Shown: one piece after another, positions 49,389 to 50,571 of the stretch | How the letters are laid out: the number at the start of each line of letters is the position of its first letter | Numbering within the stretch: position 1 is the first letter of the stretch | NCBI RefSeq assembly: GCF_003334785.1 | Contig: NZ_QOWV01000009.1 | DNA length: 64,000 nucleotides | Source: Escherichia coli | GTDB lineage: Bacteria > Pseudomonadota > Gammaproteobacteria > Enterobacterales > Enterobacteriaceae | Strand: one strand, 5' to 3' | Position numbers and translations under genes: made by a program | The notes under the pieces: model-generated | Database searches by the model: none | What the model was told of the DNA's origin: nothing | Seen by the model: only the letters and a program-made list of their open reading frames with translations

Positions 49389-49502
49389 GGGTGGGGGCCC
49401 TGCCAGCTACATCCCGGCACACGCGTCATCTGCCTTGGCTGCTTCCTTCCGGACCTGACCTGGTAAACAGAGTAGCGTTGCGGGAGAACCAACAGAGCCC
49501 CC
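49389..49502 (-). ncRNA. ffs: 4.5S RNA (signal recognition particle RNA)
   Basis: Minus strand reads GGGGGCTCTGTTGGTTCTCCCGCAACGCTACTCTGTTTACCAGGTCAGGTCCGGAAGGAAGCAGCCAAGGCAGATGACGCGTGTGCCGGGATGTAGCTGGCAGGGCCCCCACCC, 114 nt, matching the 4.5S RNA sequence as I recall it. Confidence 0.93.
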
Positions 49503-49578
49503 ATTGAGAGCGTTGAGAACCAACGCGCAGGCGCATTATCACTGCTGCCCCGGCTAATTGCAACCCATCGCGTGCCAG

Positions 49579-49968
49579 ATGCTGGTTTCTTGCGCAATGC
49601 GACTTCACTCGGGCGTTTTTCCAGATTATGCTGAAAAATTACCTCAGGAAGAAAAGATGGAAAAAGAAGATTCATTTCCCCAACGCGTCTGGCAAATCGT
49701 CGCCGCTATTCCCGAAGGCTATGTCACCACTTACGGTGATGTGGCGAAACTGGCGGGATCGCCCCGCGCCGCGCGCCAGGTGGGCGGTGTGTTAAAGCGT
49801 CTCCCTGAAGGCAGCACCTTACCCTGGCACCGGGTGGTTAATCGCCACGGCACAATTTCGCTAACCGGACCGGATTTACAGCGTCAGCGACAGGCATTAC
49901 TGGCAGAAGGTGTGATGGTATCGGGAAGCGGGCAAATCGACTTGCAGCGTTATCGCTGGAACTACTAA
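49579..49968 (+). CDS. atl: Alkyltransferase-like protein (MGMT-like DNA-binding domain without the active-site Cys)
   Basis: 129-aa product with PWHRVV in place of the PCHRV motif of O6-alkylguanine alkyltransferases; start at 49579. Confidence 0.9.
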   Translation: MLVSCAMRLHSGVFPDYAEKLPQEEKMEKEDSFPQRVWQIVAAIPEGYVTTYGDVAKLAGSPRAARQVGGVLKRLPEGSTLPWHRVVNRHGTISLTGPDLQRQRQALLAEGVMVSGSGQIDLQRYRWNY

Positions 49969-49990
49969 CCCTCTCCGGGCGGAGAGGGTT
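49967..49990. terminator. Hairpin between convergent atl and ybaY (no T-run, terminator function uncertain)
   Basis: AACCCTCTCC-gggc-GGAGAGGGTT, perfect 10-bp stem. Confidence 0.45.
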
Positions 49991-49998
49991 AACGTCGC

Positions 49999-50571
49999 TT
50001 AATATTGCGTAGGAGCTGGAACTGCCGAAGACGGATTCACCTGAGTTGGTGAAGTCGAAGGTACGGTAGTCGTTGCGCCACCGCTGGCCTGAACCGGCAC
50101 GGCGGTTTGCTGTACCGGCACCAATGTCAGGTCGGCTTTAGTTCCGCCCTGGTTGATCACCGGCTGAACGGTATCGGTGATAAATACCTGTTTGTCATTC
50201 ACGGTAATCGCCGCACTCAACAGAATACGCGCGTTCGGCTGAACATCTGCCGGGTTAAATGGCAGAACAAAGCTGAATGGTGACTGTTTACCTTCAGTAC
50301 GCACCGCTTTCTGCGCCAGCACTTTTGACGGTGCATCGGCTAACGACGCGTCAGAAAGTGTCACGGTCAGCACAGCATCAGGCGGCAGTGCGACTTTCTG
50401 ACGGATCCAGACGGTACCGGAGACATTCGGTTGCTGGATAGCTGGTTGTTGTGTTGCTGAAATAGACGTATTTGCAGCCGGTGCTGGCGTCTGAATATCC
50501 GCGCTTTTATCTGCGCAAGCCGCCAACGCAATCGCAACCGCTAAACCACTGGCCATGTGCACGAGTTTCAT
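49999..50571 (-). CDS. ybaY: Lipoprotein of unknown function
   Basis: Signal peptide with lipobox LAAC; Pro/Thr/Ala-rich C-terminus. Confidence 0.88.
   Translation of the reverse strand: MKLVHMASGLAVAIALAACADKSADIQTPAPAANTSISATQQPAIQQPNVSGTVWIRQKVALPPDAVLTVTLSDASLADAPSKVLAQKAVRTEGKQSPFSFVLPFNPADVQPNARILLSAAITVNDKQVFITDTVQPVINQGGTKADLTLVPVQQTAVPVQASGGATTTVPSTSPTQVNPSSAVPAPTQY

Follow-up and report, generated by a model that had tools for sequence, protein, structure and literature searches.

The Alkyltransferase-like Gene ybaZ of Escherichia coli: Tryptophan at the Alkyl-acceptor Site and a Probable Over-extension of the Annotated Start

Introduction

The alkyltransferase-like (ATL) proteins matter because they connect the direct recognition of base damage with NER. 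The ATL of Escherichia coli shows neither alkyltransferase nor glycosylase nor endonuclease activity, and the conversion of its PWHRV motif to PCHRV, by the replacement of the tryptophan with a cysteine, creates no activity either (PMC10779285). The protein retains the helix-turn-helix, the arginine finger, and the tyrosine for binding and base flipping, binds O6-alkylguanines, the bulky ones in particular, at nanomolar affinity or better, and bends the DNA by about 45 degrees (PMC10779285). It also binds UvrC, as well as UvrA, with which it co-translocates and for which the KD is about 100 nM (PMC10779285), with the interaction with UvrA and UvrC being described in PMC7835731 as well. The Atl1 protein of Schizosaccharomyces pombe, in turn, binds the UvrA and UvrC of E. 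coli in vitro (PMC10779285).

The biological role of the E. coli gene has been approached from several directions. The work of Mazon in 2009, as cited in PMC10779285, PMC7835731, and PMC6449902, is credited with the finding that ybaZ enhances the NER of O6-alkylguanine adducts, and the work of Mazon in 2010, as cited in PMC6449902, with the finding that eATL prevents MMR-mediated toxicity, while the title of the founding paper refers to the inhibition of O6-methylguanine-DNA methyltransferase by the protein. The alkylation phenotype of ybaZ, which the first-pass annotation had named as a check, is already on record.

The link between ATL and NER has been settled for ybaZ since 2005–2010, and nothing new is added to it here. 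Both the gene and its function are already known and experimentally characterised, and the present analysis adds only that the start annotated in K-12 probably lies too far upstream. The functional statements on YbaZ are taken from reviews, and the sequence analysis covers the identity of the gene, its domain, the change from cysteine to tryptophan, the lack of cysteine, the flipping residues, and the conservation of the gene in the Enterobacterales.

The ybaZ Locus

The window, that is, the whole stretch of 64,000 nucleotides analysed here (contig NZ_QOWV01000009.1 of assembly GCF_003334785.1), is the reverse complement of the region near 476 kb of E. coli K-12 MG1655. The segment 49389–50001, ybaZ included, does not differ from K-12 at any base (100% identity), and the wider segment 49300–50700 is matched in 5425 of the 5426 complete E. 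coli genomes at an identity of at least 95%. The three genes that define the locus are the following:

49389–49502, − strand: ffs, 4.5S SRP RNA, divergent neighbour (Rfam RF00169, 68 bits)
49657–49968, + strand: ybaZ (atl/eATL) coding sequence from its most probable start, 103 aa plus stop, with a single DNA-binding domain of the AGT C-terminal type (PGAP start, PF01035, onset of conservation, Shine-Dalgarno motif)
49999–50571, − strand: ybaY, YbaY-family lipoprotein, convergent neighbour (from annotation), given for context and outside the ATL function

The mature 4.5S sequence matches exactly at 49389–49502, which is the 114-nt ffs annotated in K-12. The genes ffs, ybaA, and pdeB lie on one side of ybaZ, and ybaY, tesB, amtB, and glnK on the other, as they do in K-12. 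The convergent arrangement with ybaY, which had been noted in the first-pass annotation, is borne out, with 30 nt separating the stop codon of ybaZ from ybaY.

The ybaZ frame stops at 49968 on the + strand, and is read from ATG 49579 as 129 aa (390 nt, as in K-12), with a longer, TTG-initiated version beginning at 49558. The K-12 annotation of this ORF, ybaZ (b0454, “DNA base-flipping protein”, 390 nt), has exactly the limits of 49579 and 49968 that the first-pass annotation had given. The RefSeq PGAP annotation names the product “MGMT family protein” (WP_000409911.1), and begins it 78 nt further in, at 49657, for a length of 103 aa, so that this copy of the gene and the eATL/YbaZ of K-12 are the same in sequence and differ in the annotated start. 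The gene is almost certainly the E. coli alkyltransferase-like protein, a stand-alone AGT C-terminal DNA-binding domain that binds O6-alkylguanine and passes the lesion to NER.

The Domain and its Active Site

The MGMT-type DNA-binding fold that had been proposed for the ORF is present in the form of PF01035 (6-O-methylguanine-DNA methyltransferase DNA-binding domain), which Pfam recovers at E = 5.1e-27 over residues 33–112, corresponding to positions 2–81 of the 81 positions of the model. The search of solved structures returned ATLs as the best relatives, that is, the Atl of Vibrio parahaemolyticus (vpAtl; 2kif/2kim, E = 1.8e-28) and S. pombe Atl1 (3gva, E = 1.7e-17), with weaker matches to the true AGTs (M. 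tuberculosis OGT, human MGMT, and Ada-C, 1sfe), the best of which reached 6.2e-10. The homology with the AGTs begins at residues 28–31 of YbaZ, and maps to AGT residues from approximately 74–95 onward, which leaves YbaZ with no AGT N-terminal domain.

The YbaZ ORF was aligned with four other sequences, the Ogt and Ada of E. coli (K-12 record), vpAtl, and S. pombe Atl1 (residues numbered here from ATG 49579). Two segments of the domain are central to the argument:

49732–49776, + strand: helix-turn-helix region, with Tyr52 (49732–49734) and the arginine finger, Arg66 (49774–49776), from the alignments
49822–49836, + strand: PWHRV motif, with Trp83 at the site of the alkyl-acceptor cysteine, from the alignment with the PCHRV of Ogt and Ada

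The motif occupies residues 82–86, and Trp83 (codon TGG, 49825–49827) shares its column with the catalytic cysteines of Ogt (Cys139) and Ada (Cys321), which confirms that tryptophan replaces the catalytic cysteine, as the initial reading had it. Tyr52, Arg66, Pro82, Arg85, Val86, and Glu110 are invariant in all five sequences, and Tyr52 and Arg66 are also invariant among 22 enterobacterial homologues. The alignment with Ada, Ogt, and the ATLs had been put forward as the check on the assignment, and it places no cysteine from elsewhere in the protein at the catalytic position, so that the one result named in advance as refuting the assignment is excluded. The possibility of another cysteine standing in for the catalytic one was considered, and rejected, given that the AGT-type domain of YbaZ contains none, and that the single cysteine of the 129-aa ORF, Cys5, belongs to the N-terminal extension and not to the domain.

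Among the solved structures, the closest resemblance is to vpAtl, which is 52% identical over the whole domain, belongs to the same class of approximately 100 aa, and has tryptophan at the position of the cysteine, and both proteins are extended at the C-terminus by a segment that finishes with Y-[RK]-W. The motif of vpAtl, however, is PWFRV rather than PWHRV, with the histidine not conserved. The Atl1 of S. pombe (3gva and others) shares 43% identity, the PWHRV motif, the arginine finger, the tyrosine, and the single domain, but comes from a eukaryote and carries small insertions in its C-terminal part. The similarity to Ogt and to the C-terminal domain of Ada includes PF01035, the helix-turn-helix, the arginine finger, the tyrosine, and the P-x-H-R-V scaffold, at 33–36% identity over the aligned domain, although these enzymes have the catalytic cysteine (PCHRV), an N-terminal domain, and an asparagine hinge, where YbaZ has Leu75, eight residues before Trp83.

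The family models point in the same direction. The only NCBIfam model passed by YbaZ is that of the TIGR00589 superfamily domain (54 bits, against a cut-off of 46.4 bits). The protein fails both equivalog models, that of Ogt (NF007626) with 44.9 bits against a cut-off of 192, where the Ogt of E. coli, run as a control, reaches 386 bits, and that of Ada (NF011964) with 37.7 bits against 345. The sequence characters of an ATL, that is, homology with PF01035, tryptophan in the place of cysteine, a single domain in a protein of some 100–130 aa, the retention of the flipping residues, and a closer relationship with the ATLs than with the AGTs, were all found in YbaZ, and those of an O6-alkylguanine-DNA alkyltransferase (Ogt/Ada/MGMT, EC 2.1.1.63), namely, the acceptor cysteine and the equivalog scores, were not.

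The tryptophan is conserved among the close relatives. A search of a large protein collection recovered 1281 relatives at E ≤ 1e-5, and the motif was counted in the 120 closest, where it reads PWHRV in 100, PWYRV in 10, PWFRV in seven, and PRHRV in two, with one disrupted motif. Tryptophan therefore occupies the catalytic position in 117 of these 120 sequences, and cysteine in none. The two PRHRV sequences may be either sequencing errors or rare variants.

Damage Recognition and Alternative Roles

The mechanism that can be proposed for YbaZ draws on the alignments and on the published biochemistry. The protein would contact the minor groove of the DNA through its helix-turn-helix, and the Arg66 finger and Tyr52 would flip the O6-alkylguanine into the pocket, where Trp83 is predicted to occupy the site of the alkyl-acceptor cysteine. 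With tryptophan at this site, instead of the acceptor, the lesion would be held tightly rather than repaired. The resulting complex, bent and long-lived, may then be recognised by UvrA and UvrC, which would route the O6-alkylguanines into NER, especially the larger adducts that are handled poorly by Ada and Ogt, and may also shield them from futile mismatch repair. The view that the protein senses damage without repairing it, which was part of the first-pass annotation, agrees with the published function of the identical protein (PMC10779285). No evidence contradicting the ATL explanation of ybaZ was found in these analyses.

A different emphasis would make the masking of the lesion the main role of the protein, instead of the recruitment of NER, either by blocking the access of Ogt and Ada or by shielding O6-alkylguanine:T mispairs from MMR. 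The inhibition of O6-methylguanine-DNA methyltransferase announced in the title of the founding paper is in line with this idea, as is the prevention of MMR-mediated toxicity by eATL attributed to Mazon 2010 in PMC6449902, but the binding of UvrA and UvrC, the co-translocation with UvrA, and the enhancement of NER have all been reported (PMC10779285, PMC7835731), and masking as the main role is very unlikely. The two roles are, in any case, compatible, and the sequence is equally consistent with either.

The probability is smaller still that YbaZ is not an ATL but a true suicide alkyltransferase, with some other residue acting as the alkyl acceptor. The protein shares its domain superfamily with Ogt and Ada, and E. 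coli YbaZ has His84 and Glu110, the counterparts of the Glu-His catalytic network of the AGTs. The histidine next to the tryptophan, however, drifts to tyrosine or phenylalanine in the close relatives, which argues that it is not catalytic, and which would be expected once the chemistry had been lost. In addition, the only cysteine, Cys5, is found in the doubtful N-terminal extension and is missing from the 103-aa form, the scores come nowhere near the cut-offs of the two equivalog models, those of Ogt and Ada, and transferase activity is absent in the literature, even after the exchange of tryptophan for cysteine (PMC10779285).

The absence of both the AGT N-terminal domain and the catalytic cysteine might also recall a truncated, functionless remnant of an ogt paralogue in decay, but the core is highly conserved, and the frame intact, in at least nine enterobacterial genera, the 64 columns that are invariant across the 22 enterobacterial homologues exclude a decaying pseudogene, tryptophan is maintained in the close homologues counted above, practically every E. 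coli genome carries the gene, the solved structures of homologues are those of folded DNA-binding proteins, and phenotypes have been published (PMC10779285, PMC6449902), so this explanation retains a negligible probability.

The Start of the Coding Sequence

The point on which the annotations diverge is the start codon. While the ORF proposed initially is real and matches K-12, its start at 49579 fared less well, with PGAP, the Shine-Dalgarno motif, and the comparison among genera all favouring 49657. The segments concerned are:

49579–49656, + strand: 26-codon N-terminal extension (K-12), weakly conserved, with indels and without a Shine-Dalgarno motif
49646–49651, + strand: Shine-Dalgarno AGGAAG, 5 nt before ATG 49657, read from the sequence (anti-Shine-Dalgarno duplex, −4.3 kcal/mol)

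Pairing with the anti-Shine-Dalgarno amounts to −4.3 kcal/mol before 49657, against +0.6 kcal/mol before 49579, and nothing comparable to a Shine-Dalgarno pairing was found upstream of the latter ATG. Among the 22 homologues, residues 1–26 are poorly conserved and contain indels, and conservation switches on sharply at Met27, encoded by ATG 49657, which is invariant in all 22 sequences and which all 64 of the invariant columns either coincide with or follow. None of the solved homologues aligns before residue 28.

The locus was compared in E. coli and eight other genera. No in-frame ATG, GTG, or TTG is found upstream of the core methionine in Klebsiella, Raoultella, Enterobacter hormaechei, or Intestinirhabdus, while Enterobacter has a stop six codons upstream of this methionine, and Kluyvera has CTG at the position of the E. 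coli ATG 49579. An AGGA or GGAG motif precedes the core ATG by 6–10 nt in all nine genera. On the balance of this evidence, it is more likely than not that the 103-aa form from 49657 is the real protein, with the 129-aa model of YbaZ in K-12 and UniProt being 26 codons too long, and the segment 49579–49656 is probably not coding, but untranslated leader or promoter DNA. In Escherichia, Salmonella, and Citrobacter, no stop interrupts the frame as far as the upstream ATG, and a more exotic variant would have this clade making two isoforms, or a longer one.

If the start at 49657 is the true one, experiments and structural models built on the 129-aa K-12 ORF may include 26 N-terminal residues that are not native, the sole cysteine of the protein among them. 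This would nevertheless be the correction of an annotation, rather than a discovery.

The Hairpin between ybaZ and ybaY

The convergent ends of ybaZ and ybaY are spanned by an inverted repeat:

49966–49991, unstranded: perfect palindrome with 12-nt arms (49966–49977 and 49980–49991) and a 2-nt centre, from the inverted-repeat search

The first-pass annotation had described a perfect hairpin of 10 bp at this point, and the hairpin is indeed there, although this length was not upheld, with the arms measuring 12 nt and the folded RNA forming a stem of 11 bp capped by four unpaired nucleotides. The TAA stop codon of ybaZ makes up the start of the first arm. Within a context of 56 nt, the structure folds at −22.8 kcal/mol on the + strand (z = −3.9) and −23.2 kcal/mol on the − strand, with a stability that none of 200 shuffled sequences equals.

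A canonical intrinsic terminator was considered and rejected, given that the terminator scan made no call and that the stem is not followed by a U-tract on either strand, in E. coli or in Salmonella. These two observations fit the overlapping ybaY-ybaZ transcripts of MG1655, where RNA-seq lists both ybaY-ybaZ and ybaA-pdeB as convergent pairs with transcript overlap (PMC12288877). The E. coli hairpin is explained most simply as a weak bidirectional terminator or a stabiliser of the 3' end, either of which would be ordinary. Most of the eight other genera that were compared also have a stem-loop at this position, and in several its sequence is not that of E. coli. The + strand of Klebsiella, Raoultella, and Kluyvera has an A-run before the stem, which provides a U-tract on the ybaY transcript and gives the hairpin of these three genera the look of an intrinsic terminator for ybaY.

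The Region Upstream of ybaZ

A sigma-70-like promoter sequence lies upstream of ffs, at 49535–49563 on the − strand (TTGCAA, 17-nt spacer, GATAAT), where it is conserved in five genera. This promoter-like site is located where the promoter of a 5'-extended 4.5S RNA precursor would be expected. No more than 16 nt separate ATG 49579 from the −35-like hexamer of this divergent promoter, which leaves little room for a promoter of ybaZ and is a further point in favour of the start at 49657. A consensus scan of the + strand found no sigma-70 promoter for ybaZ, while inspection by eye provided a candidate, TTCACT (49604–49609) and TATGCT (49627–49632), with a spacer of 17 nt and eight of the 12 consensus positions. 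If this candidate is real, transcription would start downstream of ATG 49579.

The block (A)TGCTGGnTTCTTGCGCAA, of 19 nt (49579–49597), is situated between the ffs promoter and ybaZ. Its nucleotide sequence is conserved across five genera (Escherichia, Salmonella, Citrobacter, Kluyvera, and Enterobacter), in the last two of which it is not coding. The block may serve in the regulation of ffs or of ybaZ, or be a regulatory site that is shared with the divergent ffs promoter.

In Salmonella, a MarA/RamA/SoxS ChIP peak with the motif GCCCTGCCAGCTACA has been labelled ‘ybaZ’ (PMC10268841). This peak was not accepted here as the regulation of ybaZ, given that the motif sits inside ffs, at 49397–49411, and it may reflect the highly transcribed ffs locus instead.

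The gene content upstream also varies by genus. Two small unannotated ORFs (71 and approximately 85 aa) are found in Klebsiella, Raoultella, Kluyvera, and Enterobacter, while a GntR-aminotransferase fusion gene takes the place of the E. coli ybaA and pdeB in Raoultella, Kluyvera, Enterobacter, Citrobacter, and Buttiauxella. The distance between ffs and ybaZ is 261 nt in Raoultella, as against about 155 nt.
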